Assembly: GCA_001782235.1 (NCBI GenBank)
Contig: MFOC01000002.1
Location: forward strand, 42,912-106,911
Reading direction: 5' to 3'
Length of the DNA: 64,000 bases
From: Candidatus Levybacteria bacterium RIFCSPHIGHO2_02_FULL_40_18
GTDB lineage: Bacteria; Patescibacteriota; Microgenomatia; Levybacterales; GWA1-39-11
Below the pieces are notes generated by a model, which did no database searches, had not been told where the DNA came from, and saw only the letters and a list, made by a program, of their open reading frames with translations. A program made the position numbers and the translations under genes. Numbering within the stretch: position 1 is the first letter of the stretch; each line of letters opens with the position of its first letter. Below are positions 24,033 through 64,000 of this stretch, one piece after another.

Positions 24033-26057
24033 TTACACCTTCAAGTTTAGTATCTTATCTCCTCTTAAGTCAAGTTTCTCAACTCTCTTGCCGTTGACAT
24101 AAACTTCTGTAGGCAGTACTTCAACCCCAGGCTGTTTTTGAATAAGCACAGGAAGATTGCTACCTTCTATTTTAAAGGGTAATTTATAAGTATAAGTGAT
24201 TGTTGCTTTTCCAAGAGGATTGACAGTGAAGAATCCTTCAAAATAGGTCTTCCCAAGATCTTCTTTTGTTTCAACCTTAACCTGTGAACCCTTGCTTGAA
24301 ACAAGTGTTGATCCGCGAGGAACATAAACCCTCTGGACATCGCGGTGAATGGCATTAAGACAAAGTCCTCCGCGTTCAAGATTACAGTCCGAGTGCTTTT
24401 CAGGATTTCTATAATCAATGGTTATCGTCTTTTCAATACTACCGTCGCTTCCCACTTTATAATCAATCCTTAAGTTCTGCTTAATAAACATGTTGGTTTT
24501 TGCGCCTGAAAAATTAATATCATTTATATGTAGATAATCTCCGTCAAATGCCTTTATGTTCCCAGCCCACCCCAAAGCCGCAAGTCCTTTTTGCGCATCC
24601 GGATTATTTACACTAAAAAGTATATGTTTTTCGTTTGCATCAATTACTGCTTGTTGGATTAGAGACCCCCAATATTTTCCCGGAGATACTCCCAGAGCTT
24701 TCTGCATTGTGGCATATAGAAGGCTTGCTATTATTCCTTTCCTATCCTCTCTTATGTACCCGACCGGAGTTGTTGTAATAGACTGTAATTCATAAACAAC
24801 CTGAGGACAATTACATCGCGGATCATTCTCCGCCTTAAAGAATGCATTGCCTACTTGTACTTCGCCCAATATGCCTATTACATGAACCAAGAAGTCTGTA
24901 TCAATTGCAATTATCCCGTCAATCTCGGTCGCACTACGAGAATCCTCATAAAATTCACGAAACGTTTCCATTGATTTTTGAAAATCGGGCGAAAGGTTGC
25001 TATCTCTTATATAAAATCTGGTGACTTTGGGGAAATATTTACGAATTAGCTCGGGGGCTTGAGGATGCGAACGAATAGAGTCGTCCAACCTATAGATATC
25101 ATTTGATGAATCAATATGAATTACGCCTTCCTCAATTCTGAAGATGGAATAATATGTTAAGAATCCGCCTGTTGCACGCAGTTCTCCGTCATTCTGAAAC
25201 AATATAAGGTATTTTTTAGATTTTGTATCGCCTAAAAGCTCCGGCAGTACTTTTATGAGAGGCTTCCCTTGTTCAACGGCAACAACCCCTTCGTCAACAA
25301 GAGTCTTTGCAGAGGCAATTTGATTATGAATTTTTTTGAGCGGGCCAAGGACCGGGTACCGCGCTGGATTGACGTGATCTATTTCCTCTTTTGCCAGTTT
25401 GGCCTTAACTTCAATATCGTCAATTTTAGAAACAACCTTCCCAAGGGATCTGACGGCAGTCCTAATTCGATCCTCAGCTGAACCTCCGGCAAACGTCCCC
25501 TTTCCTTTAAGCCCCAAGACGTCCGCATATGGAATAAGAGAGTCCGCCGTAATAATTGCCGCATCAATCCCGTGAATTCCGGCATTCACCATATGCTCCG
25601 CATCTGAAACATAAAGCCCTGCAAGCGGAATATATTTTGCAAAACCAATTGATGAGAGTTCTTGTTTCAAACCCTCTGCTGCCTTACGGGTTTTAACAAG
25701 TTCTTCCTTGGCTAGTACTATATTCTGATTCTTTGCAGCATCCGATGCTTTTTTTGCCTGATCATAAACCTTATCGGCCTTCTGGTATACGGCAAATGCA
25801 CGAAACGACACATAGAACATTAAGATCCCAAATATAATTAAGATCACGCCTATGATCCCTAATCTTTTTATGTTAAAAAAGTTAGAAAAGTTTATTTTTA
25901 TAGGAACTTTTGGCCTCAAGAGGGTCTTAGATTTTGTAGATAGGGGAGCTTCGCTTGAAGTAGAGTCTTTTTTCAAAACTGAATCAAATTCAATTTTTTT
26001 AAATCCTTCATCCATAAAAATATTATAAAATTTGGGCCAACTATTTATTTTAAACAA
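24033..26057 (-). CDS. DUF4012-family membrane-anchored extracytoplasmic protein
   Basis: N-terminal TM (LGIIGVILIIFGILMFYV), coiled-coil, then the DUF4012 core KYLILFQNDGELRATGGF. In-line downstream of the PglC-like gene. Confidence 0.55.
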   Translation of the reverse strand: MFKINSWPKFYNIFMDEGFKKIEFDSVLKKDSTSSEAPLSTKSKTLLRPKVPIKINFSNFFNIKRLGIIGVILIIFGILMFYVSFRAFAVYQKADKVYDQAKKASDAAKNQNIVLAKEELVKTRKAAEGLKQELSSIGFAKYIPLAGLYVSDAEHMVNAGIHGIDAAIITADSLIPYADVLGLKGKGTFAGGSAEDRIRTAVRSLGKVVSKIDDIEVKAKLAKEEIDHVNPARYPVLGPLKKIHNQIASAKTLVDEGVVAVEQGKPLIKVLPELLGDTKSKKYLILFQNDGELRATGGFLTYYSIFRIEEGVIHIDSSNDIYRLDDSIRSHPQAPELIRKYFPKVTRFYIRDSNLSPDFQKSMETFREFYEDSRSATEIDGIIAIDTDFLVHVIGILGEVQVGNAFFKAENDPRCNCPQVVYELQSITTTPVGYIREDRKGIIASLLYATMQKALGVSPGKYWGSLIQQAVIDANEKHILFSVNNPDAQKGLAALGWAGNIKAFDGDYLHINDINFSGAKTNMFIKQNLRIDYKVGSDGSIEKTITIDYRNPEKHSDCNLERGGLCLNAIHRDVQRVYVPRGSTLVSSKGSQVKVETKEDLGKTYFEGFFTVNPLGKATITYTYKLPFKIEGSNLPVLIQKQPGVEVLPTEVYVNGKRVEKLDLRGDKILNLKV

Positions 26058-26178
26058 AATTTTAGGATAAATGCAAACCTAATCCAACATGTAACACGTG
26101 GCATTTAACATGTGACGAAAGCAATTCTGTCAATTGTCAGTTGTCAAATGTTAATTGTTGTGATTTTGCGCAGAAAAA

Positions 26179-26817
26179 TCACATGGCGCCTTTGCCTGAA
26201 AGCATTGCAAATGGAGTTTGGATGATTATCCACAAATCATAGAGAATAGACCTCTTTGAGGCATAGCTTGCATCAAGCTGTATTCTTTTATCAAAATTAA
26301 TTTCAGATCGGCCGGTTACCTGCCAAACTCCTGTTATCCCAGGCTTTACCGACAGCACGATTTTTACAGACTCGCGTGTGCTGGGGTATTCTTTTTGCTG
26401 GTCGCGCAGTTCATCAGGATAATAAGCTCGAGGACCCACAATGCTCATCTCGCCGCGCAAAACGTTTATAAACTGCGGAATTTCATCTATTGAATATTTT
26501 CTAATTATCCTGCCTATGTTTGTGATTCTTGGATCTTCTTTTAATTTATATCCTCCTTTCTTATATTCCTCGTGGAGCTTCTTGAATTCAGGATCGTTTA
26601 AAAGAATTTCGTGCGCGTTCTGAACCATGGATCTAAATTTATACATTCTAAACAATCTGCCGTATCTACCTACTCTTTGCGGGGTATCTGCAAATATTGG
26701 CCCTAGAGAGTCAAGTTTTATTGCGATGGCGGCAATTATTATTACAGGCAAAAAAATAATTATAAGAACAATTGAAAGGATTGTATCAAGAAGTCTCTTA
26801 AAAAAATCGTACACCAT
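26179..26817 (-). CDS. PglC/WbaP-type polyprenyl-phosphate hexose-1-phosphate transferase (initiating phosphoglycosyl transferase)
   Basis: Monotopic N-terminal helix plus bacterial sugar transferase motifs YKFRSMV, EIPQFINVLRGEMSIVGPR and KPGITGVWQV. Confidence 0.85.
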   Translation of the reverse strand: MVYDFFKRLLDTILSIVLIIIFLPVIIIAAIAIKLDSLGPIFADTPQRVGRYGRLFRMYKFRSMVQNAHEILLNDPEFKKLHEEYKKGGYKLKEDPRITNIGRIIRKYSIDEIPQFINVLRGEMSIVGPRAYYPDELRDQQKEYPSTRESVKIVLSVKPGITGVWQVTGRSEINFDKRIQLDASYASKRSILYDLWIIIQTPFAMLSGKGAM

Positions 26818-26825
26818 AAAATATC

Positions 26826-26935
26826 GTATAACGTTTGTCGGTAACGAAGCCCGTATCGGTTAAGTTCTACGTTAAACGTGACCAAACTACGAAACGGGCA
26901 TCGTAACCGTAACCGATAACCGAACTTGTTACGTT
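26826..26935. repeat. imperfect palindromic intergenic element with CGTAAC/GTTACG-type short repeats
   Basis: CGTATAACG, CGGTAACG, CGTAACCGTAACCGATAACCG units and their approximate inverses between the PglC-like and ManC-like genes. Confidence 0.4.
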
Positions 26936-28011
26936 AGTTTCTCGTGTTCTGTTCCGGACAGCGATTCAACAAGTTTTTTAATCTTAGGAACAGATTCTTT
27001 AGGGCAAACCAAAACCACATCTTCAGTATTAATAACAAGATAATCGGAAAGATCTATGCCCACAACCATTTGATCTGTATAGTTGAATACAAGGCTATCT
27101 TTTGAATCCTCAAGCATAACCTTTCCCTTTGTAACGTTTTCCTCTTCCGATGTCGATAGCGCCTCTTTGAGCTGCTCCCAAGCGCCAATATCACTCCAAC
27201 CAAAGTCTGCACCAATAACATAACCGTCGGAGGACGTTAATTTCTCAAGGATAAGATTGTCAAAGGATACTTTTTCAAATGTAGGAAAGACGTTCGATAA
27301 GGTGTCTGAAAACAAAGAAGTTCCATATGAAGAAGCGATTTTAACAAGACCGTCATACATTTGGGGGGCATATTTTTGATACAAAGACATTAAAAATGAT
27401 GGCGTAGTACCAAAATAACCCGGATTCCAAGCATGCTTCTCACTTGCATGAAACTCCTCAGCTGTTGCTAAATCCGGACGGTAATGAAGGCTCTTAAATT
27501 CATAAACTGATAAACCCTCAATGTCCTTTATCTTTTCGCCGAATTCAATCCAGCCTAAGTTTTGAGTGGCCAAGCGCGATTTCTGCCCAATAAAAACTAT
27601 TTTATTAGGTTTGTTCTCAAGGATTTTTCCGCAAGTAACTAGGATTTTGCGAAATAGCCCTTCATTTTTAACAAGATGATCGCTCCAAAGAATTATAAAG
27701 GGTTCTGAATCAGCTACTTTCTCAAGAATTGCGGCAACCAATCCAACCGCCGCTCCTACATCCCTCATTTCAGGCTCAAGAATAAAGTTTTCGCGAGGAA
27801 TACTGGGAAGCTGGCCATGCAGGATTTCACGATATCTCTCGCCCGAGGAGATAAAGATATCCGAAGGTTTAAAAATTGGAGAAATGCGATCATATGCCAA
27901 TTGCAATGTTGATTTTTCGCCAATTACTTTTTCGAATTGTTTTGGAGTGTGTTTTCTTGATAAGGGCCAAAGCCTTGTCCCAACTCCTCCTGCAAAAATT
28001 ACAGCCTTCAT
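26929..28011 (-). CDS. mannose-1-phosphate guanylyltransferase-like nucleotidyltransferase
   Basis: N-terminus MKAVIFAGGVGTRLWPLSR with ManC-type NTP-transferase layout. 360 aa, no cupin domain. Confidence 0.65.
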   Translation of the reverse strand: MKAVIFAGGVGTRLWPLSRKHTPKQFEKVIGEKSTLQLAYDRISPIFKPSDIFISSGERYREILHGQLPSIPRENFILEPEMRDVGAAVGLVAAILEKVADSEPFIILWSDHLVKNEGLFRKILVTCGKILENKPNKIVFIGQKSRLATQNLGWIEFGEKIKDIEGLSVYEFKSLHYRPDLATAEEFHASEKHAWNPGYFGTTPSFLMSLYQKYAPQMYDGLVKIASSYGTSLFSDTLSNVFPTFEKVSFDNLILEKLTSSDGYVIGADFGWSDIGAWEQLKEALSTSEEENVTKGKVMLEDSKDSLVFNYTDQMVVGIDLSDYLVINTEDVVLVCPKESVPKIKKLVESLSGTEHEKLT

Positions 28012-28115
28012 AAAATGCTAATGAAATGCGAATTTAATTAGTGATAATGATGCGAATATTCGCATAAATTCGCAGTATTTAAATTAGTATAAAATAACTT
28101 TACCATAATTGAACA

Positions 28116-29255
28116 CTATAAAATTCCCAAGATTTTAGCCTTGAACCTTTCGAATGAGAATCTATTAGCATTTTTACGGCAATCTTTCCCATTATAGCGG
28201 CTTGCCCGGAAGCTTTTCAACTTCGAAGCTAATGATTGAACGGTTTGTTTATCAAAAAATACACCGGTTTTCCCCTCGACTATAATCTCTTCTGCCCCAC
28301 CACCCCGAAACGCAATAACAGGCTTGTCGAAGGTTTGCGCTTCAACCATGGTTAATCCAAAATCTTCAACTCCGGGGAACACAAGTGTCTTGCAATTTGC
28401 GTAGTAATATTTAAGATCCGAATCAGAAACATATCCTAAAAAATCAACAGTCGGTCCCGCCATTTTTTTAAGACGATCGAATTCGCTTCCAGTTCCTATG
28501 ATCTTTAACGGCGCGCGAACCTTATTTGCCGCTTTTACAGCAAGGTCGATTCGTTTATAGGGAACTAGTCTCGAAACGATTAAAAAATAGTTTTGAATTT
28601 TGAATTTAGAATTTTGAATTTGTTTCGGATTTCGAATTTCGGATTTCGAATTTAATGGGCGCATCATTAATGGCGGATAAATAACTTCCGATTCTAATCC
28701 GTAATACTTTTTGATTCGACTTTGAACTGTTTCCGATATTGCAATCAATTTGTCTGGCCTTCGTGCTGCAATTTTGTCCCAAAAACGAAGATAGGAAACA
28801 ACCGGCCAAATTATAATTCGAAAAATTGGATTCGAAAAATAGTCTTTGTGTCCGCTCCAAAGATACCTTGTGGGCGTTAAAATAATCGAGATGTGTTTCG
28901 TCTGAGGTTTTGTAATAATGCCTTTTGCAGCCTCAGAAGTTAACGATATAACCAAATCGAAGTCTGAAAAATCGAACGATTCAAATGCAACTGGCATAAG
29001 AGTTGCAAAAACTTCATGATGAGAAGATGCAAACGGGATTTTTTGAAGGAACGACGTTTTTACTGGAATTTTTCTTGCCCAAGAAGCGCGGTCTTCTTTG
29101 TAAACTGATGTAAACAAAACCGAATCGGGAAAAATTTTGCGCAAAGCTATAATAACACGCTCCGCTCCACCCCACTTATTGACTCTATCATAAACCAACG
29201 CCACTTTCATGGGAAGATTATAACATCTTGACAAGTCAATACCAAACCTATACAA
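28116..29255 (-). CDS. family 4 glycosyltransferase (GT4)
   Basis: C-terminal GT-B motif VFPGVEDFGLTMVEAQTFDKPVIAFRGGGAEEII (E-x7-E). The interdomain linker carries a translated 7-nt tandem repeat. Confidence 0.8.
   Translation of the reverse strand: MYRFGIDLSRCYNLPMKVALVYDRVNKWGGAERVIIALRKIFPDSVLFTSVYKEDRASWARKIPVKTSFLQKIPFASSHHEVFATLMPVAFESFDFSDFDLVISLTSEAAKGIITKPQTKHISIILTPTRYLWSGHKDYFSNPIFRIIIWPVVSYLRFWDKIAARRPDKLIAISETVQSRIKKYYGLESEVIYPPLMMRPLNSKSEIRNPKQIQNSKFKIQNYFLIVSRLVPYKRIDLAVKAANKVRAPLKIIGTGSEFDRLKKMAGPTVDFLGYVSDSDLKYYYANCKTLVFPGVEDFGLTMVEAQTFDKPVIAFRGGGAEEIIVEGKTGVFFDKQTVQSLASKLKSFRASRYNGKDCRKNANRFSFERFKAKILGIL
28582..28648. repeat. in-CDS tandem 7-nt repeats (TTTGAAT x4 then TTCGRAT x4)
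   Basis: Tandem units read directly from the sequence. Translated as NSKSEIRNPKQIQNSKFKIQN in the GT4 interdomain linker. Confidence 0.7.
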
Positions 29256-29256
29256 T
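29228..29256 (+). promoter_or_regulatory. near-consensus sigma70-type promoter (TTGACA-17 nt-TACAAT) for the toxin-antitoxin operon
   Basis: TTGACA at 29228..29233, a 17-nt spacer, then TACAAT at 29251..29256. Lies 10 nt upstream of the antitoxin ATG at 29266. Confidence 0.5.
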
Positions 29257-29265
29257 CGTATTATT

Positions 29266-29553
29266 ATGCAGAGAGTAATAGTTCAAGTTCCAATGAGCCA
29301 AAGTTTAAAAAGCATGGCAGAAACTGTTGCTTCTGATATGGGTTTTTCGTCCTTACAGGAAGCAATTCGAGTCATCTTAACAAAGCTATCAAAAAAGCAG
29401 TTAACCTTAAGGATTGAGGAACCTGAAGAAATAACTGATCTCTCCCCCACCGCAGAAAGAAGATTTAAAAAAGCGCTTGCCGATATCAAAGCAGGAAAAA
29501 ATATCTATAAGCCAAAAAATAAAGAGGAATTCTTCAAAATGCTCCGTTCATGA
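29266..29553 (+). CDS. type II antitoxin (putative ribbon-helix-helix, RelB/DinJ-like)
   Basis: 95 aa. The ATGA overlap places its stop inside the toxin start codon. N-terminal beta-strand/helix pattern. Confidence 0.5.
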   Translation: MQRVIVQVPMSQSLKSMAETVASDMGFSSLQEAIRVILTKLSKKQLTLRIEEPEEITDLSPTAERRFKKALADIKAGKNIYKPKNKEEFFKMLRS

Positions 29554-29819
29554 AGACCTACTTCACGAAAAGTTTTAAAAGAGCATACAAGGAAAGAATT
29601 GAGTCTAATCCAAAATTAGTAAACAAATTCGAGGAAAGATATGACCTATTTTTAGAAGACCCTTCGAACCAACTTCTTTCAGATCACCCACTTGGCAAAA
29701 ACCTAACAGGATTTAGAGCATTTTCTGTCACTAAAGACGTAAGAGTCGTGTACCATATTCATAATAACATTGCCTATTTTATTGACATCGGCACCCACAC
29801 CCAAGTCTATAAAAAATAA
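29550..29819 (+). CDS. type II toxin, RelE/YoeB/ParE superfamily
   Basis: LGKNLTGFRAFSVTKDVRVVYHIHNN...IGTHTQVY parallels the YoeB/RelE core LKHNLSGFWSRRIT..RLVY...H.Y. 89 aa. Confidence 0.75.
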   Translation: MKTYFTKSFKRAYKERIESNPKLVNKFEERYDLFLEDPSNQLLSDHPLGKNLTGFRAFSVTKDVRVVYHIHNNIAYFIDIGTHTQVYKK

Positions 29820-29906
29820 GACACACCCAATTTTTGCGATAGCAACTTTTGGGTGTATAAAGTCTCTCGAAGAAGAGGTGTGGATCTAGACAACCCGGAG
29901 GGTTGA

Positions 29907-31043
29907 TTAGCTTGAAACCTTTTCTTTAACTGCCGAATTATAGATGCTTAGCGTTTGTTTCGCCATTTCTTTCCATGAGAATTGTTTGGCGCGCGTTTTG
30001 CCTTGGGCAATTAATTCTTTTCGGGATTCTTCGATTAATGAACACGCAAAGGAGATTTTCTGTTTTATATCACTTACATCGCTAGGGTTGCAATAGATAG
30101 CGGCGTTTGAACAAATTTCTCTATGGACGGGAATGTCTGAAACAATGACTGGACAGGAAAGAGACATTGCTTCAACTGCCGTCAATGAAAAGCCTTCTAA
30201 GAATGATGGAACGATGGTTGCTGTCGCATTGGAATAAAGCGAAAAAAGATCAGAATCTTTAACGTTCTCAAAAAATATCGTATTTGCCCCTATATTTAAT
30301 TTTTCTATTTGTTTTTCTATCCTTTTGAAAAAATAATCTCGTTTTCCAACCAAGATAAGCTTTACATCATGATTTTCGTAACTATCGTAGAGAAAATCTC
30401 TGAATGCTGAAAGCAATCCCTCAATATTTTTATGTGGATAGAAATTTCCTACACGCAAAATATATCTTCCTTCGATGAGTGGCGTGTGGCGGGTAGCACG
30501 TAGCAGGTGGTCGATGCCGCCTTCGTATGTCACCTCAACTTTAGAAGGATCAATATTGAGATAAGTTTTCAAAAGATCGTCGCGGACCGCATTTGAGGGA
30601 ACAATAATTTTTTTTGATCTATAAACCGCGTTTGATAAAACCGCATAGTATCCAATGCGTTTTACTAGATATAAGGATAAAGGCAATGTTGACGCTCGAC
30701 CCGTGTTAAATTTATTGACGATTAAATCATGAATCGTGACGATAAACGGCTTATGATAGAAAATTGGAACCGAAAAATATGGGAAATGCATCAAGTCCAG
30801 ATTTTCCTTGTTTAAAAGCTTGGGAAATAAGACTTGTTCGGTAACTGAATGCCAAGGAAAATCTGCTTTGACAACTGACAACTGACCACTGACAACTGAC
30901 TTAATTGCTTTTTCATCATCTGTACGAGCAAACAAGATATATTCGTTTTTTTTGTCGAGCTGAATAAGATTCGAAACAAGATTACGAATGTAACGCCCTA
31001 CTCCTGTTTCATTCCAAAGCCGAACATCAATACCAATCCTCAT
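29907..31043 (-). CDS. family 4 glycosyltransferase (GT4)
   Basis: GT-B C-domain motif VPSFLEGFSLTAVEAMSLSCPVIVSD. Carries the in-CDS 7-mer repeat ACAACTG x4. Confidence 0.8.
   Translation of the reverse strand: MRIGIDVRLWNETGVGRYIRNLVSNLIQLDKKNEYILFARTDDEKAIKSVVSGQLSVVKADFPWHSVTEQVLFPKLLNKENLDLMHFPYFSVPIFYHKPFIVTIHDLIVNKFNTGRASTLPLSLYLVKRIGYYAVLSNAVYRSKKIIVPSNAVRDDLLKTYLNIDPSKVEVTYEGGIDHLLRATRHTPLIEGRYILRVGNFYPHKNIEGLLSAFRDFLYDSYENHDVKLILVGKRDYFFKRIEKQIEKLNIGANTIFFENVKDSDLFSLYSNATATIVPSFLEGFSLTAVEAMSLSCPVIVSDIPVHREICSNAAIYCNPSDVSDIKQKISFACSLIEESRKELIAQGKTRAKQFSWKEMAKQTLSIYNSAVKEKVSS
30870..30900. repeat. in-CDS tandem 7-nt repeat (ACAACTG x4, one variant ACCACTG)
   Basis: Read directly. 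Translated as SVVSGQLSVV near the GT4 N-terminus. Confidence 0.7.
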
Positions 31044-31083
31044 GGTTTTAAGTTGTAAGTTTTAAGATGTAAGTAATTTCTTA
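31044..31083 (-). promoter_or_regulatory. conserved 5' leader motif shared by two adjacent GT genes
   Basis: Coding-strand sequence GAAATTACTTACATCTTAAAACTTACAACTTAAAACC sits directly before the ATG. Paralogous copy at 31990..32030. Confidence 0.45.
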
Positions 31084-31101
31084 AATCGTATATCATACAT
31101 T

Positions 31102-31989: not shown

Positions 31990-32030
31990 ACTAGCTTTTA
32001 AGTTTTACGATGTAAGATTTAAGTAATTTC
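31990..32030 (-). promoter_or_regulatory. second copy of the conserved GT-gene leader motif
   Basis: Coding-strand GAAATTACTTAAATCTTACATCGTAAAACTTAAAAGCTAGT before the ATG at 31989. Shares GAAATTACTTA.ATCTTA and AACTTAAAA with the 31044 copy. Confidence 0.45.
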
Positions 32031-32059
32031 ATACATCTTAGATCTTACAACTTACCTAC

Positions 32060-34701: not shown

Positions 34702-34760
34702 AAGCTTAATTCTAGTTTATTTTATAGCATCAATCAAACTTTTTGTTATAATCTCGAGAA

Positions 34761-36530: not shown

Positions 36531-36560
36531 CCTCATTAGCTTTATTGTATCAAAAAAACG

Positions 36561-39800: not shown

Positions 39801-39868
39801 AAAATTGAATAGCTAAATAGCTAAATGGCTACATGGTTTTTAACCATTCAACTATTCAACCATTTTAA

Positions 39869-41280: not shown

Positions 41281-41289
41281 ATATTTATT

Positions 41290-42580: not shown

Positions 42581-42609
42581 AATTAGTATTAAGAATTAAG
42601 TATAAAGTA

Positions 42610-42978: not shown

Positions 42979-43002
42979 ACTTAATACTTACTTCTTTATA
43001 CT

Positions 43003-43536: not shown

Positions 43537-43572
43537 TTCTTAATTATAACTATAAAGCGACTTGGGAACAAA

Positions 43573-56211: not shown

Positions 56212-58432
56212 TTATCGCAACTGAGCCAAAAAGTCTCTCAATGGGTGAACCCTCTAGATAAGTACCTGAAACAACTAACCTAACAACTTTATCATTAAAT
56301 TTTACAAAGTATTGTGTTTGCCAACCGCTCTTAAATTCAATTGCATCATTAAAGTGATATGTATCAAAATATATTTTCTTTAAGGTTACAGTCCCCGCTT
56401 CATTTATAACTGTTTTTATTTCCTGCATATCAAAAGTGGGCAATACTGAAATAATGCTTAATTGAGCGGTAAATCCAGGATTGCTCAGTGTATATATTTT
56501 TAAAATTTTAGGATCTTGAGTGCTTATCTGCTCCTCTATTTTAGCTCCTTGCGGATACCTGAAGGATAATTTCGTAAAAGAGTCTTCAAAAACCAGCCAA
56601 TCAGTATCATTTTTTGAATTTTTCATAAAATTCTCCATTTCTTCTCTTACGGACTTGGTAATATCGTTAAACTTAATTTTTTTTGAATCATAATAAAAAC
56701 CATAAACGTCATTAACGGAAAAAGTATTGGCAAGAAGAGCTTCTGATAGCGTTTTTTTGGTATTATAAAATCCAAATCCCCTGTTTTCTGAAAACAAATA
56801 ACCTTGTGGTTTTGCATCCAAAATAAATGTATCAAAAAAACTATCTGGTAGTGGATTCTTATCATAGTAGACAATTGTCAATATCTGAGGGAAACTCGTT
56901 TGGAAAGGAAGTATTGTACCGTATGCGCCTCCCCCATCTGTCTCGGCATAGAAAACAGCTTTTTGTGGTAACACCGGAAGATGCTGTTTTAATTGTGTAA
57001 TAATCTGCCGCCTTGGGATTCCCGTAACATCAACAATGGTATGCATATTCGCTTGAAATACGCTGTTATTGTTAATAAACCAAGCAAGAAACAGCAAACC
57101 TAAAACCCACAAAGAATTCAGAGAAATTCGCGTTATTTTTTTGATTATCCTGACTATAAATTCAGAAATAAATAAGAGCAAAAAAGGAAAAACTATCGCA
57201 GCTCCAATGGAAGGCATATAATAATGCCTTGAATCAAAAAGATCTGTCCCCCACGACGGAATACGTAAAACATTTAAAACCAGAGGGAGCGTACTCGCTA
57301 TTATGAGTAAAAATCCTAAAAGAACAGTTTGGGCCTCAGAATTTTTCTTGGATTGCATGTATTTACGTACCATAACAATAATGAGCACAACTATTCCAAG
57401 AGAAATCAGATAAAATAATAAATTTTGTCCCGGCCCATATACAAAAAACAAACGATTTTGGGCTCGCGACGCTGGCTCGCCAGGATATAAGTAATAAATA
57501 AACGGGCTTATCGTCTGCATGACAGAAAGGATAGTCGCCCCGGGGATAAAAACTTGCGAAAGCATACTTAAGGGAAATGAAATAGTTCTGTAGATAATAA
57601 GAGAGATATCAAAACCGCTACTTGCAGTAGCAACTTCTGCTTGATGTGTTAATTTCATGCTAACCTCTATCCATTGATTTATCCACACATACAAAGCTGG
57701 CAACACAAAACGAAAAGGAATAAAAAATGCTAACGGGATAGAATAGATTTTAATTAAAAATTTTACTGGGAAAACTCTTTTTTCCATAAAAATCATAATT
57801 GGAATTATCAAAATAAGAACAACTGCTATTTCTTTAGTTAGTAGATCAAGCAATAAAAATATGGAAGAAATAAAAAGATATTTTTTTTTCTTTGTACTTA
57901 GGGCTTTCTTCAAAAATAAAATGCTTAATATAAAAAAGGTAATTGAAAGAACATTTTGGCCATAAAATGCAGCCCATGTAACTGCATGCATAGGTATCGC
58001 CGACAATGCAAAAAAGACTCCTCCCACAATTGCAATAATGGTATTTTTGGATTTAAGTTTCCCATTTTTTAATAATTCCTGAATAAAAAGAAATACCAAG
58101 AAACTATTAATTGAGTGAAGCAATATAGATATAAATGCATATGGTGTAAAATTGACTCCAAAAAATCGAGTGTTTAGAAAAAAGATTTCCTCTCCTATTG
58201 GAACAACATGTTGCCCCTCAGATAATACTACCGCATCTGTAACTGATTTTATTAAAGGAAGTAACGGACCCCAAGGATCTTTTGTTAAAGGAAAGTAATG
58301 TGTAAAATGGAACCATTCATCCGCTTCAAAGTAAGAATTAAAGAGATCTTTGTATGCTGTAAAAACAAGGATAAGGAAAAAGATAAGTATAATTTTTTCG
58401 TTGAAAATAATTTTCTTAAACTTCTTTTTCAT
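56204..58432 (-). CDS. 742-aa GT-C-like polytopic membrane protein with C-terminal soluble domain
   Basis: ~13 TM helices. First loop has the acidic motif YFEADEWFHF. ~200-aa C-terminal extracytoplasmic domain. Confidence 0.45.
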   Translation of the reverse strand: MKKKFKKIIFNEKIILIFFLILVFTAYKDLFNSYFEADEWFHFTHYFPLTKDPWGPLLPLIKSVTDAVVLSEGQHVVPIGEEIFFLNTRFFGVNFTPYAFISILLHSINSFLVFLFIQELLKNGKLKSKNTIIAIVGGVFFALSAIPMHAVTWAAFYGQNVLSITFFILSILFLKKALSTKKKKYLFISSIFLLLDLLTKEIAVVLILIIPIMIFMEKRVFPVKFLIKIYSIPLAFFIPFRFVLPALYVWINQWIEVSMKLTHQAEVATASSGFDISLIIYRTISFPLSMLSQVFIPGATILSVMQTISPFIYYLYPGEPASRAQNRLFFVYGPGQNLLFYLISLGIVVLIIVMVRKYMQSKKNSEAQTVLLGFLLIIASTLPLVLNVLRIPSWGTDLFDSRHYYMPSIGAAIVFPFLLLFISEFIVRIIKKITRISLNSLWVLGLLFLAWFINNNSVFQANMHTIVDVTGIPRRQIITQLKQHLPVLPQKAVFYAETDGGGAYGTILPFQTSFPQILTIVYYDKNPLPDSFFDTFILDAKPQGYLFSENRGFGFYNTKKTLSEALLANTFSVNDVYGFYYDSKKIKFNDITKSVREEMENFMKNSKNDTDWLVFEDSFTKLSFRYPQGAKIEEQISTQDPKILKIYTLSNPGFTAQLSIISVLPTFDMQEIKTVINEAGTVTLKKIYFDTYHFNDAIEFKSGWQTQYFVKFNDKVVRLVVSGTYLEGSPIERLFGSVAISE

Positions 58433-59450
58433 TAAATCTTCCTTCCGGATTAAAGAAAAAATGTGAATAATAGTTAAAACTTGGATTACGTTCTACAGAG
58501 GCAAAGAGCATTTTATCATTTATTTTTCTAATACGAGATTGTATGTATTCTCTTTTTTTTAAAATCGAAGGTAAACTGGGAATCCATCCTATAACTCCGA
58601 TTTGAGAAGCAATGGCTTGTTTGAATTTCCCCCGAAGAAGACTCATAAAAATAAGTATCTCACAAAGTATAAAATGAATCGGTAAAACAAATAGTAACTT
58701 TTTTAAGCTTAAATTTTTTATATAAGATACAAACCTATTTCTAAAAGATCTAAATATTACCACTTCAGTTTTTGTCATTACAGACATATCTCCTCCGCCA
58801 AAGTGATAAACAATACTTTTTGGTATATAAATTATATTTTTTCCGGAGAGAAGAAGTCTATGACAAAGATCCGATTCTTCAACGTAGGTGACAAAACTTT
58901 CATCTATTCCTCCGAGATCAAGATAATCTTTCTTTTTCATAAGATAACAAGCTCCTTTTACTGAATAAACTGAAAGTTCTTTGTTGTATTTTTTTTCGGT
59001 TGCATTTTGAAAATATCCGTAGTGATATAAAAATCCGGTGAAGGTAAAAAAAGAACCGATAGAATCAATTGCATTTTTACTAACCATATTCCTTATTTGA
59101 GGTTGAACCGCTCCAATAGTTTTATCATTTTCAATTTTTTCAACAAGAGGCCCCAGAAAATTTGGAGTGACCTTAGTATCATTATTCAAAAAAAGAATGT
59201 ATTCGCCTGTAGCTCTTTTAACTCCTAAATTGTTTGCTCCTGAGTATCCTCTGTTCTTTTTAATTTCCAAGACTTTAAACTTCGGATAGTTCTTTTTAAG
59301 GAATTTTGCACTGTCATCCGTTGAACCATTGTTTACAATCAAAACTTCAATATTTTTATAGCTGACCTTTTTTAGAGTAGGAAGAAGCCCCTCCAGCCAT
59401 TTCTTGCCATTATAATTTGGTATAAGTACTGTAACCTTAGGTTTCGACAT
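58416..59450 (-). CDS. family 2 glycosyltransferase (GT2)
   Basis: VTVLIPNYNGKKWL...VNNGSTDDS and DxD-containing core. Confidence 0.8.
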   Translation of the reverse strand: MSKPKVTVLIPNYNGKKWLEGLLPTLKKVSYKNIEVLIVNNGSTDDSAKFLKKNYPKFKVLEIKKNRGYSGANNLGVKRATGEYILFLNNDTKVTPNFLGPLVEKIENDKTIGAVQPQIRNMVSKNAIDSIGSFFTFTGFLYHYGYFQNATEKKYNKELSVYSVKGACYLMKKKDYLDLGGIDESFVTYVEESDLCHRLLLSGKNIIYIPKSIVYHFGGGDMSVMTKTEVVIFRSFRNRFVSYIKNLSLKKLLFVLPIHFILCEILIFMSLLRGKFKQAIASQIGVIGWIPSLPSILKKREYIQSRIRKINDKMLFASVERNPSFNYYSHFFFNPEGRFNEKEV

Positions 59451-59455
59451 AAAAT

Positions 59456-60307
59456 TTAGGATAAAGTGAATAGATATCTTTTTAGTGCATCTTTCCAGGA
59501 AGGAAGTGTAACTCCAAGTTTTGCTGCACTGGTATTTTTAAGCGCAGAGAACATAGGACGTCTTAAATCTCCCTCACTCCGTCTGATAGGAATTACTTTT
59601 GTATTCTTATTTGATGCTCTAATTATTTCCATTGAAAATTCGGCAAGTGAACAATATCCTTCATTAACCAAGTGATAAATTCCAGAATTTGGTTTTTTTA
59701 ATATAAGTCTTAAAGAGGCAATAGCCAGGTCTTTTGCATAAGTTGGAGAAACGATTTGATCAGATGCTACCTCAAGCTCATCATTCTCTTTTGCCTGTTT
59801 TAAAATCGTTAATACAAAATTTCCACCTTTTGATCTACTACCTGATAATCCTCCGTACAAATAGGCAGTCCTAATAATTAATGACTTACTGCAATACGTT
59901 TTTGCGCAATATTCTCCCGCAAGTTTTGAGATTCCATACAATTGTAATGGATTTGCAGCATCATCTTCTAAGTATGGCTCGCCTTTTCTACCATCAAAAA
60001 CGTAATCAGTGCTATAGTGTATTAACCGTGAGCCATTATCTTGGCAAATCTGAGCAAGATTTTTAATAGCTATGGAATTAATTATGAAAGCTTTATCAGG
60101 AAACTCTTCACAGTCGCGAACTACATGAAAGGCGGAAGCATTTATAACAACGTCTGGTTTTATTCTTTTGACAAACTGAGAAATTTTACCTTTGTCTTCG
60201 ATATTAAGTTCCTTACTTGAAAATGCCGATACTTTATATTTCTTTCCCAACTCTATGTTTAGCTCGTGACCTAATTGACCATTTTTCCCAATTAATAAGA
60301 ATTTCAT
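59456..60307 (-). CDS. rmlD: dTDP-4-dehydrorhamnose reductase RmlD
   Basis: MKFLLIGKNGQLG...PDVVINASAF...HYSTDYVFDG...PYLEDD...LYGISKLAGE matches RmlD throughout. Confidence 0.8.
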   Translation of the reverse strand: MKFLLIGKNGQLGHELNIELGKKYKVSAFSSKELNIEDKGKISQFVKRIKPDVVINASAFHVVRDCEEFPDKAFIINSIAIKNLAQICQDNGSRLIHYSTDYVFDGRKGEPYLEDDAANPLQLYGISKLAGEYCAKTYCSKSLIIRTAYLYGGLSGSRSKGGNFVLTILKQAKENDELEVASDQIVSPTYAKDLAIASLRLILKKPNSGIYHLVNEGYCSLAEFSMEIIRASNKNTKVIPIRRSEGDLRRPMFSALKNTSAAKLGVTLPSWKDALKRYLFTLS

Positions 60308-60834
60308 CTTTTAGAAAGTGGCCATGAGGCATCCTTTTCTGATAAGAGCGGCTTATCTATTGGCCATTGAATCTTAAAAAACGGATCGTCCCATCTTATG
60401 CCTTTTTCATATTCTGGAGAATAATATTCAGTAACGAAATATTCAACGACCGTATCTTTTTCAAGCGTCTGGAATGCATGACCGCATCCCCTTGGAACAA
60501 GGAGCATTTTTTTATTTTTTTCCGACAATTCCACTCCTAACCATTTACCAAATGTCTTGGAATTACGACGTAAATCTATGGCAACGTCAAAAACTTTACC
60601 ATGCAAGCACTGGATTATTTTGTTCTCCGCGTGAGGTTTTATTTGGTAATGAATTCCTCGAATTGTACCTTTTTGTTTTGTGAATGATCTATTAATATGA
60701 ACTATATCAAATTCTATCTTATTTTTTTTAAGAACCTCTTTAGCATATATTCTCATGAAGTATCCGCGATCATCTACTTTTGGTTCAGCTTCAATAACGT
60801 ACACACCGCGAATTTTTGTTTTGTGAATCTTCAT
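60304..60834 (-). CDS. rmlC: dTDP-4-dehydrorhamnose 3,5-epimerase RmlC
   Basis: Cupin with DDRGYF and RGIHYQ motifs. 176 aa. Overlaps rmlD by 4 nt. Confidence 0.85.
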   Translation of the reverse strand: MKIHKTKIRGVYVIEAEPKVDDRGYFMRIYAKEVLKKNKIEFDIVHINRSFTKQKGTIRGIHYQIKPHAENKIIQCLHGKVFDVAIDLRRNSKTFGKWLGVELSEKNKKMLLVPRGCGHAFQTLEKDTVVEYFVTEYYSPEYEKGIRWDDPFFKIQWPIDKPLLSEKDASWPLSKR

Positions 60835-61859
60835 GTTGTGCGGAATAAATTCTTATCAATTCTGTTATTCTTCTGCAAGCGGCGTAAAACTGCAAGTCGA
60901 GTATATCTCCCTTCCTCAAAATCTTTTTTTGAAAATTTACTCTTTTTGAGAGCATAAATCATATCCTTAACAGATTTTGAAAGAGGCCATTTTTGACGGA
61001 CGTTGGGAAAGTGTTTCTTAAAGAAACCAAACTTGACTCTATAGCTTCTTGAATCAGCGCCATGTTCCCCTGTGTAGACGGCCGAGCAAAAGGGTAGCTC
61101 TTTTTTTATCACATCAACAAGATCCCTCACTTGAAAATTATTTTCATTAAATCCAATATTTACAATTTCCCCATTCAAAGATATGTCTTTTGTCTTAAGG
61201 AATTCAATAAAAATGTCAGTAAGGTCTCGAACATCAATCAAGGGCCTCCACGGTGTACCATCGCTCATAATTCGTATCTGGCCATAAGCAAGTGCTGTTG
61301 TGACTAAATTATTTACGACTAAATCATTTCTAAAACGAGGAGAAAAACCATAAACTGTCGAGTTTCGCAGAAGGCCAACAAAAAAATCTGAGGCAGCTAG
61401 TTTTTTAAGAGCTTGTTCGGTTTTTATTTTTGAGCGAGCATAGGCCGTCAATGGATTCACTCTCGATTTTTCATCCACTATTCCGTTTTCAGCTATACCG
61501 TAAACACTCGCGGAGGAAGAAAAAATAAATTTTTTAACTCCTGCTTTTTTTGCTAATTTTGCTAATCGAATTGAAGCCTTATGGTTTATTTCTTCTGTCA
61601 ATTTTGGGTCTATCTCTCCCATTGGATCATTAGATAAAGCACTGAGGTGAATAATTGCATCAACTCCTCTCAGGTCAGAAAGGCTTACATGACGAATATC
61701 CTTTGTGATTTTTTTATAGGAGGGTATGGAATCGCCGGGCAAAAGGTTGTTTTCAAAAAAACCCGTATCTAATCCAATTACATTGTGACCTTCTTTAACT
61801 AATTTCCTGACCAGAACCGATCCAATATATCCTCTATCACCGGTAACCAAAACTTTCAT
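60831..61859 (-). CDS. NAD-dependent epimerase/dehydratase (extended SDR)
   Basis: N-terminal VLVTGDRGYIGS Rossmann motif. ~340 aa. Confidence 0.7.
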   Translation of the reverse strand: MKVLVTGDRGYIGSVLVRKLVKEGHNVIGLDTGFFENNLLPGDSIPSYKKITKDIRHVSLSDLRGVDAIIHLSALSNDPMGEIDPKLTEEINHKASIRLAKLAKKAGVKKFIFSSSASVYGIAENGIVDEKSRVNPLTAYARSKIKTEQALKKLAASDFFVGLLRNSTVYGFSPRFRNDLVVNNLVTTALAYGQIRIMSDGTPWRPLIDVRDLTDIFIEFLKTKDISLNGEIVNIGFNENNFQVRDLVDVIKKELPFCSAVYTGEHGADSRSYRVKFGFFKKHFPNVRQKWPLSKSVKDMIYALKKSKFSKKDFEEGRYTRLAVLRRLQKNNRIDKNLFRTT

Positions 61860-61863
61860 ATTA

Positions 61864-62637
61864 TCACCACACTTTCCAGGCAGGATCCTTTTTCCACTGT
61901 TTATTCATTTCTTCAACATCTTGATATGTATCCATCGCTGACCAGTACCCGTCATGAAGATATACTGCAAGTTGACCATTTTTTGCTAATCCCGGAAATG
62001 CATCGTGAATCATATCACCTTTCTTTAGATATTCAAAAACTTTTTTTGTAAAAACCATAAATCCTCCATTTGTATATTGATTAAATCTTGGTTTTTCTTG
62101 GAATCTTTTGACGACCCCATTCTTGTCCGAGACAATAATCCCCCATTTAGACTTAGGGTGGACACCTGTAACAGTCCCTATTAATTTCTTTTTTTTATGG
62201 AAACGAAGCAAATCTCGAATATTAATATCGCTGACACCGTCTCCATAAGTAACCATAAATAGATCCGATTTTAAGTATTTTTTTACTCTAACTAATCTAT
62301 CGCCAGTTGGCGTTTCAAGACCTGTATTGACAAAGGTAATATCAAAATCATCTTTTCTCCTTCTGTTATTTTTATGTAAAATTTTTTTTCCTGTTTTTGT
62401 TTGTAAATTAAAGTCGTTATCAAAATACTCCTGGTTTAGAAAATAATCTTTAATGTAATCACCCTTATACCCTAGAGCTATTATAAATTTATTGAATCCG
62501 TGGTGTGAGTAGATTTTCATTATGTGCCAGATGATTGGTCTTCCTCCAAGGGAAACCATGGGTTTTGGGCGGAATTCAGTTTCTTCTTTCATTCGTGTTC
62601 CTGTCCCACCACAGAATATTACTACCGGAATTTTCAT
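61864..62637 (-). CDS. rfbF: glucose-1-phosphate cytidylyltransferase RfbF
   Basis: Matches RfbF along its whole length (VVIFCGGTGTRMKEETEFRPKPMV, GRPIIWHIMKIYS, TYGDGVSDINI, NGGFMVF, C-terminal PAWKVW). 257 aa. Confidence 0.85.
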   Translation of the reverse strand: MKIPVVIFCGGTGTRMKEETEFRPKPMVSLGGRPIIWHIMKIYSHHGFNKFIIALGYKGDYIKDYFLNQEYFDNDFNLQTKTGKKILHKNNRRRKDDFDITFVNTGLETPTGDRLVRVKKYLKSDLFMVTYGDGVSDINIRDLLRFHKKKKLIGTVTGVHPKSKWGIIVSDKNGVVKRFQEKPRFNQYTNGGFMVFTKKVFEYLKKGDMIHDAFPGLAKNGQLAVYLHDGYWSAMDTYQDVEEMNKQWKKDPAWKVW

Positions 62638-62670
62638 AGTTTTAAATTTGGTTACTTATTTTAACATATT

Positions 62671-63762
62671 TTGATGTTGACGGGCATATTTTTCTTAGTT
62701 ATAATGCCATATATAAATTTAGTGAAAAAAACAAAGAAAAAAATCTTCATAACAGGAGCCGCCGGATTCATAGGAAGCAATGTTTTAGAGTACTTATTTA
62801 AAAAATATAAAAATTACTACTTCACCGTACTCGATGCATTAACATATGCAGGAAATCTAAGAAATTTTCTACCCGAGATGATGAACGACAAACGCTTTCA
62901 CTTTGTGTACGGAGATGTAACCAACAATGCTTTGGTCGACAATCTAGTACGGGATTCTGATGTTGTAATTCATTTTGCTGCCGAAACTCACGTCACACGA
63001 TCAATTCATGACAATAGAAAATTTTTTGAGACTGATGTCTTGGGAACTCAATCGGTTGCAAACGCAGTTTACCATCATAAAAAAAGGGTTGAAAGATTTA
63101 TTCATATCTCTACTTGTGAGGTATATGGTCACGGTCTTACTCGAAAGATGGATGAATCACATCCACTAAACCCTCATAGCCCATATGCGGCAGCAAAAGC
63201 AGGAGCAGATCGCTTAGTATATTCTTACTATATTACTTATGGGATTCCAGTAATAATCTTGCGTCCATTTAATATTTATGGGCCCCGCCAGCATCTTGAA
63301 AAAGCAATACCCCGTTTTATAACTTCCGCATTATCGAATGATCCATTACCGCTGCATGGAGGGGGGAAGTCAAAAAGAGACTATATGCATGTTTCAGACG
63401 TAGCAACGGCTATTGATCTTTTAATACGCGCTCCTCTTAAAAAGGTTAAGGGTGAGGTATTTAATATTGGTTCAGGAAAAGCAATATCAATTCTTCAAAT
63501 AGCAAAGTCAGTCGCAAAGCATATGAAAATTCCAGAGTCCCGAATTAAAATTGTAAAAGACAGACCGGGACAGGTGTCTGGTTTTGCTTGCGATTATAGT
63601 AAGATAAAAAAACTACTTGGTTGGGAACCGAAAAAAGACATGAGAATAGGACTCATTGAAACAATTGCCTGGTATCGAGAAAATAAGGATATTTGGAATT
63701 TGCAAACATGGCTCAAGTCAGTTCCAATTGTGTTGCCTGATGGCACCACCGAACACCACTAG
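62671..63762 (+). CDS. rmlB: dTDP-glucose 4,6-dehydratase RmlB-like
   Basis: ITGAAGFIGSN, LDALTYAGN, AAETHVTRSI and SPYAAAKAGADRLV match RmlB signature regions. Confidence 0.8.
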   Translation: MMLTGIFFLVIMPYINLVKKTKKKIFITGAAGFIGSNVLEYLFKKYKNYYFTVLDALTYAGNLRNFLPEMMNDKRFHFVYGDVTNNALVDNLVRDSDVVIHFAAETHVTRSIHDNRKFFETDVLGTQSVANAVYHHKKRVERFIHISTCEVYGHGLTRKMDESHPLNPHSPYAAAKAGADRLVYSYYITYGIPVIILRPFNIYGPRQHLEKAIPRFITSALSNDPLPLHGGGKSKRDYMHVSDVATAIDLLIRAPLKKVKGEVFNIGSGKAISILQIAKSVAKHMKIPESRIKIVKDRPGQVSGFACDYSKIKKLLGWEPKKDMRIGLIETIAWYRENKDIWNLQTWLKSVPIVLPDGTTEHH

Positions 63763-63765
63763 TAT

Positions 63766-64000
63766 ATGAATGTTGAGTTTTTTAAACATAATGTCGGAAA
63801 TCAAGAAATTAAATTGGTTGAGAAAGTACTTCGTTCGCTCTTTTTGACAACGGGTGCATATGTAGATCAGTTTGAAGAATCTTTAGCGTCTTATCTTAAT
63901 GCAAAATACGCTGTTGGACTAACTAGCTGTACAGCCGCGCTTCATCTCGCGTGCATTGCCGCCGGTGTAAAACCAGGAGATGAAGTTATAACCACGCCAA
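63766..64000 (+). CDS. DegT-family sugar aminotransferase, 5' partial (runs off window end)
   Basis: Translation MNVEFFKHNVGNQEIKLVEKVLRS...YVDQFEESLASYL...LTSCTAALHLA matches the DegT N-terminus. No stop codon before position 64000. Confidence 0.7.
   Translation, partial: MNVEFFKHNVGNQEIKLVEKVLRSLFLTTGAYVDQFEESLASYLNAKYAVGLTSCTAALHLACIAAGVKPGDEVITTP

Follow-up and report, generated by a model that had tools for sequence, protein, structure and literature searches.

How does a bacterium of the Candidate Phyla Radiation (CPR) assemble its surface glycan, and how do the lipid-linked intermediates reach the outside, when the genes for assembly include many membrane-bound glycosyltransferases (GTs) but no recognisable exporter? 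This question is raised by a 64,000-nt stretch of Candidatus Levybacteria bacterium RIFCSPHIGHO2_02_FULL_40_18 (contig MFOC01000002.1, positions 42,912–106,911; hereafter the window), a CPR bacterium with 37% GC (31–43% across the window). A sequence-only reading had described positions 24,033–64,000 as a 40-kb surface-glycan island with a PglC-type initiator, nine GT-A/GT-B transferases and six proteins of the GT-C fold. We scanned all open reading frames (ORFs) of at least 100 aa in this interval with Pfam and NCBIfam models. Every listed gene class was present with a significant family match, and these matches also bore out the PglC-type initiator and a surface-glycan locus with an unusual wealth of GT-C proteins. 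We propose, with a probability of roughly 60%, that the region is a cell-envelope glycoconjugate locus, in which a core operon would make a polyprenyl-linked glycan and a variable set of genes would decorate it by means of GT-C enzymes outside the membrane. CPR bacteria have tiny genomes, depend on host contact and have an envelope chemistry that is essentially uncharted. The locus exceeds 50 kb in total, extending at least 10 kb beyond window position 64,000, and would make up ∼6–7% of the genome if genome size is close to that of a complete relative (0.76 Mb).

A conserved core operon and a variable distal part

The locus has two parts, a core operon (Part A, 24,033–43,536) and a variable part that starts at 43.8 kb and reaches 73.7 kb or further, with island genes densely packed on the minus strand and frequently overlapping. 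In a survey using one genome per species, relatives of the 1079-aa core membrane protein (M1079) were found in 260 genomes. For synteny, we took 80 loci with flanks of at most 10 kb (1.44 Mb in total), called their ORFs and matched these to the proteins of the window. The sample covers Levy-, Gottesman-, Roizman- and Woesebacteria and includes a complete 0.76-Mb chromosome (L075), which also carries the core operon. Core gene order was collinear in 77 of the 80 species loci, the three exceptions being paralogue matches in the upstream variable part. Each core gene was present in 87–100% of the loci, counting only those that reach far enough to cover it, and in 24 of the 80 RecO came next after the operon. 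This collinearity and presence identify Part A as a core and not as an accessory element. The earlier view of the whole 40 kb as accessory and fast-evolving therefore fails for 24.0–43.5 kb; from 43.8 kb onward it holds, with variable content and lower GC (0.31–0.36 versus 0.37–0.40 for the core). Comparison across related genomes thus separated a conserved core from a variable distal part. A ∼20-kb operon fixed in 77 of 80 species points to a lineage-defining, probably indispensable envelope polymer.

More than 1,200 homologues of M1079 were found, the best 120 of which are full-length and 54–98% identical. The closest homologues of the island proteins all came from Levybacteria or 'Patescibacteria group' genomes, and the window sequence itself is part of GCA_001784035.1 (contig MFOX01000001.1) and recurs in many assemblies from the Rifle aquifer and other groundwater. 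Species records titled 'uncultured Gammaproteobacteria bacterium' (L008, L009, L012, L013 and many others) carry the Levybacteria-type operon at 50–82% protein identity; these titles are evidently wrong.

In the order of transcription, the 13 core genes begin with a stand-alone N-terminal half of a GT4 enzyme (177 aa, 43003–43536; Glyco_transf_4, E = 2.5e-11; 57/59 loci), followed by GT4d (41414–42580; Glycos_transf_1, 1.3e-37; 64/64), the WcaF-like hexapeptide O-acetyltransferase AcT184 (40726–41280; Hexapep, 3e-19; WcaF, 5.5e-29; 71/71, 68% identity) and GT2b (39869–40738; Glycos_transf_2, 1.5e-32; 67/73). After M1079 and the 491-aa membrane protein M491 come GT4c (32060–33229; Glyco_trans_1_4, 1.4e-20; 71/71), GT2a (31102–31989; Glycos_transf_2, 6e-25; 60/66), GT4b (29907–31043; Glycos_transf_1, 2.6e-30; 62/62) and GT4a (28116–29255; Glycos_transf_1, 2.2e-29; 59/61), all on the minus strand like the remaining three. 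These are a ManC-like mannose-1-phosphate guanylyltransferase with NTP_transferase and ManC beta-helix domains and no phosphomannose isomerase domain (26929–28011; TIGR01479, 9.5e-62; 55/59), a small PglC-type phosphoglycosyl transferase, the putative initiator, with a single hydrophobic helix (212 aa, 26179–26817; Bac_transf, 4.2e-60; 54/58, 69% identity), and, as the last core gene, a 674-aa DUF4012 membrane protein with an N-terminal transmembrane (TM) segment (24033–26057; PF13196, 1.8e-24; 45/51, median 50% identity). DUF4012 is enriched in CPR and Gram-positive bacteria and has been linked to a Bifidobacterium exopolysaccharide cluster (PMC6744442). The GT4 half had been taken for a truncated gene. 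It comprises the N-terminal Rossmann half of GT4 only and has a median length of 179 aa among 60 relatives, and this conserved length argues for a conserved stand-alone protein and not for a truncation or pseudogene. By analogy with Alg13/Alg14, it may act as one part of a split enzyme or as a partner subunit. A scan of the core operon for promoters and terminators found nothing above background.

The boundary between the two parts lies in a 251-bp gap (43537–43787), the largest intergenic region of the island, at which GC drops and synteny breaks. Beyond it, gene content differs even in the relatives whose M1079 is 76–82% identical (L007 and L009). Such a hypervariable decoration module on a fixed core recalls the rhamnose polysaccharides of streptococci and lactococci.

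GT-C membrane proteins and the M1079 fusion

All six large membrane proteins were polytopic in a hydropathy-based prediction, with 7–11 TM segments in M491, M628, M869, M1210 and M742 and 18–23 in M1079, and fold similarity to solved GT-C enzymes was found for each of the six. M1210 (51971–55483, minus strand; ∼700-aa soluble domain and C-terminal TM anchor) is the only GT-C of the window that passes its own curated model (PF11847 GT-C_AftD, 1.3e-6; 27.1 bits against a cut-off of 26). Its ORF of 1210 aa is present as described, whereas gene callers give 1170–1178 aa. The M628 family (43788–45674, minus strand), which we classed as AftD-like GT-C_A with a C-terminal beta-sandwich and TM anchor, matched M1210 over 530 columns (hhalign, 98.6%). 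M491 (33226–34701, minus strand; ∼10 TM; 72/73 loci) is a PMT_2/ArnT-like GT-C_A (PMT_2, 1.4e-5 in the window copy), and all 37 orthologues analysed matched PMT_2 (best 2e-14), 21 of them matching PMT as well. M742 (56204–58432, minus strand; PMT_2-like GT-C_A, 5.1e-5; ∼290-aa soluble domain) is homologous to the C-terminal module of M1079 (hhalign, 97%; E = 6.5e-11). A relation between M491 and M1079 was also considered, and comparison with the M1079 profile gave none.

M869 (45676–48285, minus strand) was assigned to the YfhO family through its homologues. Among 41 of these, drawn from 1.84 billion proteins and 16–45% identical, 25 matched Pfam YfhO (PF09586; best 2.4e-32) and 11 matched PTPS_related, while the N-terminal region of the window copy had no direct family match of its own. 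M869 has the C-terminal beta-sandwich and TM anchor in common with M628, but its TM region was not matched by the M628 profile.

Motif mapping pointed the same way, with an acidic motif in the predicted first extracytoplasmic loop. In M1079, D605 and D606 of GDDFTWF were invariant among 50 sequences, and EADEWF of M742 aligned with this motif; D29 and D37 of M491 were invariant in 37 sequences, and the invariant G7-D8 of M628 aligned with GHD of M1210. M869 was the weakest case, with a majority 'GD' only. Judged by these sequence and fold comparisons, the count of six GT-C proteins stands, with M869 tied to the superfamily via its homologues and with one correction, namely that M1079 appears to be a fusion of a WaaL/Wzy-like module and a GT-C_A module.

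The C-terminal module of M1079 (aa ∼566–1079; 36561–38105, minus strand) is ArnT/PMT-like and contains the GDDFTWF motif and a C-terminal beta domain. The N-terminal module (aa 1 to ∼565; 38106–39800, minus strand) is WaaL/Wzy_C-like, with a beta-rich outer loop at aa 287–437 and five invariant arginines (R181, R236, R282, R443 and R478). It has a WaaL-type fold, its top structural match being the lipid-A-core ligase WaaL, and it matched the IctB family at 3e-8, well under the IctB cut-off. Homologues of M1079 are named 'O-antigen ligase family protein' in their source records. We take the WaaL/Wzy-like module to be a GT-C_B in the nomenclature of Alexander and Locher. The fusion of both modules in one ∼1070-aa polypeptide is conserved in the 260 species genomes. 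The possibility that the C-terminal half is a hidden Wzx/MOP flippase (12 TM) was rejected, as this half is homologous to the PMT_2-like M742 and its fold matched only GT-C_A. Sequence searches against the PDB gave nothing significant for M1079, M1210, M869, DUF4012 or the family profiles A1, A2, A4 and A5; the match of A4 to AftD was no better than E = 0.1.

The route across the membrane and competing readings

No island ORF matched the MOP, MurJ, MatE, ABC, GtrA or EamA families in Pfam or NCBIfam, and gene maps annotated with Pfam for 10 kb on each flank of the window showed no exporter. Across these 84 contiguous kb (the window plus 10 kb on either side), the earlier observation that no Wzx or ABC exporter can be recognised was confirmed, and a canonical Wzx/Wzy/Wzz or ABC set overlooked by eye was not found in the island when MOP, ABC and Wzz were searched for. 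ABC_tran and ABC2_membrane gave no matches, and neither the window and its flanks nor the 80 loci contained an ORF with both Walker A and LSGGQ. Wzz-type polysaccharide copolymerases (PCP) had no match in the locus; the DUF4012 protein has an N-terminal TM segment but no C-terminal one. Among the 80 related loci, we detected a single Wzx-like ORF, located in the variable part (L023, 676–2064; Polysacc_synt, 1.4e-11). With only one such ORF and no ABC signature in 80 loci, the absence of an exporter next to these genes characterises the lineage and is not peculiar to the window genome. A 290-aa EamA/drug–metabolite transporter (DMT) occurs in the variable part of four loci (L044, 3635–4510; L059, 3822–4691; L068, 4396–5268; L071, 2959–3834). 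ArnE and ArnF belong to the EamA superfamily. In one further locus, an MBOAT acyltransferase lies downstream of the core genes (L019, 18956–20437). The window genome region has no counterpart of the EamA, Wzx-like or MBOAT genes of its relatives.

The only flippase candidate within the cluster is sm129 (51609–51998, minus strand), a 129-aa protein without Pfam match whose gene overlaps the end of M1210. Three TM segments were scored in the window copy, which matched ORFs of relatives at phmmer E-values of 8e-8 to 2e-3. In the relatives, a small ORF with 4–5 TM segments (105–128 aa) followed 15 of 15 M1210-like genes, overlapping them or lying a few bases downstream. In 12 of the 15, an M628-like gene came next, in many cases with a GtrB-like GT2 after it, immediately ahead of the core operon. 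This M1210/sm129/M628 frame recurs in the window, with methyltransferase, DegT, acetyltransferase, GtrB-like and YfhO-like genes inserted between sm129 and M628. The relatives of sm129 form one family of 4-TM proteins with a PYxNI motif, and its 33 database homologues are all unnamed and lack Pfam domains. Identity with GtrA found no support in Pfam or homologue searches (hhalign, 0.3% probability against an approximate E. coli GtrA sequence, a weak test), and an apparent truncation of sm129 in some assemblies was traced to gene calling and not to mutation. As a flippase, sm129 is unproven; a GacJ-like partner or a GT-C subunit would be just as conceivable. It is quite unlikely, in our estimate, that the lipid-linked intermediates of the core operon cross the membrane without any MOP, ABC, GtrA or DMT flippase, via the sm129 family or the WaaL-like/GT-C fusion. 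If they do, either candidate would stand for a flippase family, or a way of exporting polyprenyl-linked sugars, that is new.

From the families, folds, synteny and missing linked exporter described above, we infer an order of steps, donors, an acceptor and a membrane route as follows. The PglC-type enzyme would start an undecaprenyl-diphosphate-linked oligosaccharide, which the four GT4 enzymes, the GT4 half and the two GT2 enzymes would extend on the cytoplasmic side, with ManC supplying GDP-mannose as one of the donors and the WcaF-like enzyme adding O-acetyl groups. After translocation by a flippase presumably encoded away from the locus, the WaaL/Wzy-like module of M1079 could polymerise or ligate the diphosphate-linked glycan at the outer face, where polyprenyl-monophosphate donors would provide the sugars added by the ArnT/PMT-like module and M491. 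The DUF4012 protein is possibly an auxiliary envelope component. In the variable part, Rml, aminotransferase, acetyltransferase and methyltransferase enzymes would make the sugars that feed a CsbB/GtrB-like synthase of polyprenyl-monophosphate donors, and the YfhO-like, AftD-like and PMT_2-like GT-Cs would transfer these sugars to the polymer outside the membrane.

The putative synthase (48317–49246, minus strand) is a 309-aa GT2 with two C-terminal TM segments. Its full length was matched by PgfS (3.4e-63) and ArnC (1.4e-48), in both cases below the equivalog cut-off, so that the label CsbB/GtrB/ArnC is an assignment at family level only. Its gene directly adjoins that of the YfhO-like M869, with a gap of 31 nt. 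The closest analogue of the locus is found in the assembly of Gram-positive cell-wall polysaccharides together with multi-component transmembrane glycosylation (including GacI/J/K/L; PMC8035078, PMC5836110, PMC7389260), and not in mycobacterial arabinogalactan. Three-component systems consist of a GT-A (CsbB/GtlA), a GtrA-type flippase (GtcA/CflA) and a GT-C (YfhO/GtlB/Csd), and their flippases can be unlinked, as for GtcA in Listeria and for a single CflA that serves three GT-A/GT-C pairs in L. lactis (PMC8035078). As in CsbB–YfhO systems, a membrane-anchored GT2 of the CsbB/GtrB/ArnC/PgfS type adjoins a YfhO-family GT-C here; further GT-Cs with an acidic first-loop motif are a second likeness, and a flippase that is often encoded elsewhere and common to several pairs is a third. 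With unlinked, shared GtrA-type flippases on record, a missing flippase for the monophosphate donors is unremarkable in itself. An exporter for the diphosphate-linked glycan may likewise be encoded elsewhere, although missing linkage is less usual in this case. Unlike those systems, the locus has no detectable GtrA, couples a 4-TM protein without family match to AftD-like GT-Cs, contains six GT-Cs in the window and at least nine in all, and resides in a CPR host. The S. pyogenes GacI–GacJ–GacK–GacL system resembles it in having a GT-A synthase, a small 3–4-TM partner, a GT-C and variable side-chain genes on a conserved backbone cluster, but the small protein is coupled here to GT-C genes instead of the GT-A, and there is no equivalent of the Wzx-type GacK. 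In contrast to Wzy-dependent pathways of the Gram-positive cell-wall or O-antigen type, for which WaaL (PDB 7TPJ) served as structural reference, the locus lacks Wzx, Wzz/PCP and LytR-CpsA-Psr (LCP) ligase genes, and its WaaL/Wzy-like module is fused to a GT-C_A.

Several points weigh against our proposal. Most window copies stay below the curated cut-offs (M491, 25.8 versus 26.1 bits; M742, 24.0 versus 26.1; the M1079 C-terminal module, 19.7 versus 26.1; M869, 19.4 versus 26.4), and the N-terminal module of M1079 reaches 23.2 bits for Wzy_C (E = 6.4e-5), with a cut-off of 31.7. M491, M742, M869 and the Wzy_C module are accordingly assigned only via orthologues, profiles or models, and the window copy of M628 matched no curated family. 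A ligase and a polymerase role of the WaaL/Wzy-like module would look alike here. The translocation step is unaccounted for, as the 84 kb contain no flippase of a known family. No LCP ligase, Wzz/PCP or sortase was found in the locus, which thus gives no pointer to the acceptor. Finally, that the core and the variable part act on a common product is an assumption of the proposal.

Could the core operon instead be a general protein O-glycosylation system, acting on an S-layer protein or pilins, in which the Wzy_C/WaaL-like module would be an O-oligosaccharyltransferase resembling PglL, PilO or WsaB/WsfB and the PMT_2-like GT-Cs would, like PMTs, mannosylate proteins directly? O-oligosaccharyltransferases are among the members of the Wzy_C family, and an initiating phosphoglycosyl transferase, GTs and a Wzy_C-type transferase occur together in Gram-positive clusters for S-layer glycosylation. 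The best GT-C fold matches include Pmt4, Pmt2, STT3 and PglB, the PMT family proper was matched by the 21 M491 orthologues mentioned above, and the lack of an LCP ligase or Wzz fits this view as well. However, matches at fold level say nothing about the acceptor, the locus contains no S-layer or pilin gene, and the top structural match of the module is WaaL and not a protein transferase, although a PglL-type structure may be lacking for comparison. Pairs of CsbB/GtrB-like and YfhO-like proteins are also known for polymer glycosylation (PMC8035078). On balance, we regard protein glycosylation as possible, if unlikely. A conventional Wzx/Wzy or ABC O-antigen or capsule locus, with an exporter that was missed or lies just outside, seems very doubtful, and for the 84 kb examined this reading is refuted. 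Its normal content would include an initiating phosphoglycosyl transferase, cytoplasmic GTs, a Wzy_C-like protein and nucleotide-sugar genes, all of which are present, and one relative (L023) does have a Wzx-like gene in its variable part. Against it stand the lack of MOP or ABC genes among the island ORFs of at least 100 aa, all of which were assigned, and in the 10 kb on each side, the single Wzx-like ORF and the total absence of Walker A plus LSGGQ ORFs in the 1.44 Mb of related loci, and the missing Wzz/PCP; an exporter elsewhere in the genome is assumed by our own explanation too.

The density of large GT-C proteins had also been likened to the Emb/Aft-like enzymes of actinobacterial arabinogalactan and lipoglycan pathways, on an accessory, fast-evolving island. 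M1210 passes the GT-C_AftD cut-off, six to nine GT-Cs lie within ∼50 kb, and the distal half is indeed variable and of lower GC. The resemblance nevertheless held at the level of the AftD fold only. Identity to mycobacterial AftD (PDB 6WBX/6W98), AftA and AftB was at most 14% and similarity to Emb was low. Genes for decaprenyl-phosphate-arabinose were lacking, with no Pfam or NCBIfam match to a UbiA-type decaprenyl-phosphate phosphoribosyl pyrophosphate transferase or to DprE-type enzymes among the scanned ORFs. The enzyme present for lipid-sugar synthesis belongs to the CsbB/GtrB/ArnC type, the host is a CPR bacterium of 37% GC, and the proximal 20 kb are collinear in 77 of 80 species. We regard this reading as highly improbable.

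The glycoconjugate locus that we favour is built from known enzyme families and, as a genomic inference, holds no surprise of principle. A search of a subset of the open-access literature, which is no proof of novelty, gave no account of the operon, of a protein that fuses WaaL-like and GT-C modules or of any GT-C enzyme in a CPR bacterium. Apparently undescribed are the operon with its conserved order, the fusion protein and the 4-TM family coupled to GT-Cs. Both the fusion and the small 4-TM proteins are targets for structural and heterologous work, the operon could serve as a marker of Microgenomates, and the locus offers a test case for the flipping of lipid-linked sugars in minimal genomes.

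Remaining distal genes, insertions and flanks

Upstream of the synthase gene, the variable part encodes a WbbJ-like hexapeptide acetyltransferase (198 aa) and a DesI/PseC-like (DegT) aminotransferase (362 aa; together 49253–50912, minus strand), followed by an S-adenosylmethionine (SAM)-dependent methyltransferase of 228 aa (50923–51609, minus strand; Methyltransf_23, 3.6e-24). In a scaffold of the same population (ANAN16; L003, ∼10185–11282, corresponding to window positions 49824–50912), one 7-nt indel in 4.1 kb breaks the frame of the DegT aminotransferase, a difference due either to variation within the population or to faulty assembly. Beyond M1210 lie a second SAM methyltransferase of 224 aa (55522–56196, minus strand; Methyltransf_23, 3e-22), M742 and, overlapping it by 17 nt, a 344-aa GT2 with one TM segment (58416–59450, minus strand; Glycos_transf_2, 1.8e-28). 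These are followed by genes for RmlD, RmlC, a 342-aa short-chain dehydrogenase/reductase (SDR) epimerase/dehydratase and an RfbF-like glucose-1-phosphate cytidylyltransferase (59456–62637, minus strand; TIGR01214, 3.4e-80; TIGR01221, 2.6e-56; TIGR02623, 8.6e-77), with both RmlC and RmlD exceeding their curated cut-offs. On the plus strand, 62674–64000 holds a 362-aa RmlB-like NDP-glucose 4,6-dehydratase (TIGR01181, 8.8e-95) and the first part of a PseC-like aminotransferase gene, whose complete copy in L087 matched PseC at 4.8e-103. The two aminotransferases described before therefore comprise one complete DegT gene and a second that starts at 63,766 and runs past the end of the window.

The next 10 kb past the window contain this PseC-like aminotransferase, methyltransferases, a metallophosphatase, an SDR, an ATP-grasp enzyme and another GT4, together with three more polytopic proteins (495 aa, 491 aa and a 441-aa PMT_2 protein, 2e-15). 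The 495- and 491-aa proteins are paralogues (L087, 12964–14451, plus strand, and 17885–19360, minus strand; ∼3 and 8–9.4 kb past the window end) with 8–9 TM segments, a C-terminal soluble domain, an N-terminal YPRFxNxxxGVDxWT motif and no Pfam match. By these features they may form a further, unrecognised GT-C-like family.

The toxin–antitoxin pair, the IS200/RAYT element and the four-helix-bundle gene, which had been read as marks of an accessory island, are present, but they are small insertions in a conserved frame. The type II toxin–antitoxin pair (29266–29819, plus strand; RelE/ParE superfamily) consists of a 95-aa antitoxin-like ORF without family match and, overlapping it by 4 nt, an 89-aa YafQ/ParE toxin (YafQ_toxin, 1.8e-10; 41.4 bits, cut-off 30), and was found in none of the 80 related loci. 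Between M491 and M1079, which are neighbours in nearly all relatives, two genes are inserted (34761–36433), a 314-aa SQS_PSY-like gene on the plus strand (Pfam, 1.1e-3) and a 221-aa Y1/IS200-like transposase on the minus strand (2.4e-5). At that junction, the SQS-like gene recurs only in L008 and the Y1 gene only in L016, while L009 and L071 carry a Y1 gene elsewhere in the operon. The four-helix-bundle gene, of the 23S rRNA intervening protein (IVP) type (42610–42978, minus strand; PF05635, 6e-36), has counterparts in eight of the 80 loci. Five of these lie, like the window copy, at the junction of the GT4 half and GT4d (L007, L015, L017, L059 and L067; six copies in all) and three at other junctions (L022, L033 and L050). 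Although adjacent genes are 75–88% identical, the IVP copies share only 34–61% identity with that of the window, a sequence difference that suggests repeated insertion or replacement.

Scans of the window with Rfam and tRNA models gave no matches. Positions 1–24,000 hold the division and cell wall (dcw) cluster (FtsZ, FtsA, MurG, FtsW, MraY, Mur ligase, GlmU-like, MurA, MurE, penicillin-binding protein, MraW and MraZ), followed by a tRNA synthetase and RecO. Between the cluster and RecO lie three minus-strand ORFs without Pfam match (22040–23164, 374 aa; 19681–20166, 161 aa; 20210–20563, 117 aa). Downstream of ftsZ, two more minus-strand ORFs (484–1017, 177 aa, and 1540–2163, 207 aa) have no family match on record and combine a charged, coiled-coil-like N-terminus with 2–3 TM segments. 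At the place expected for MurF, the dcw cluster encodes a Mur ligase for which the gene callers agree on 539 aa (9926–11545, minus strand), with an N-terminal domain of ∼165 aa and 5–6 hydrophobic helices ahead of Mur_ligase_M and Mur_ligase_C; a membrane-anchored Mur ligase would be unusual.

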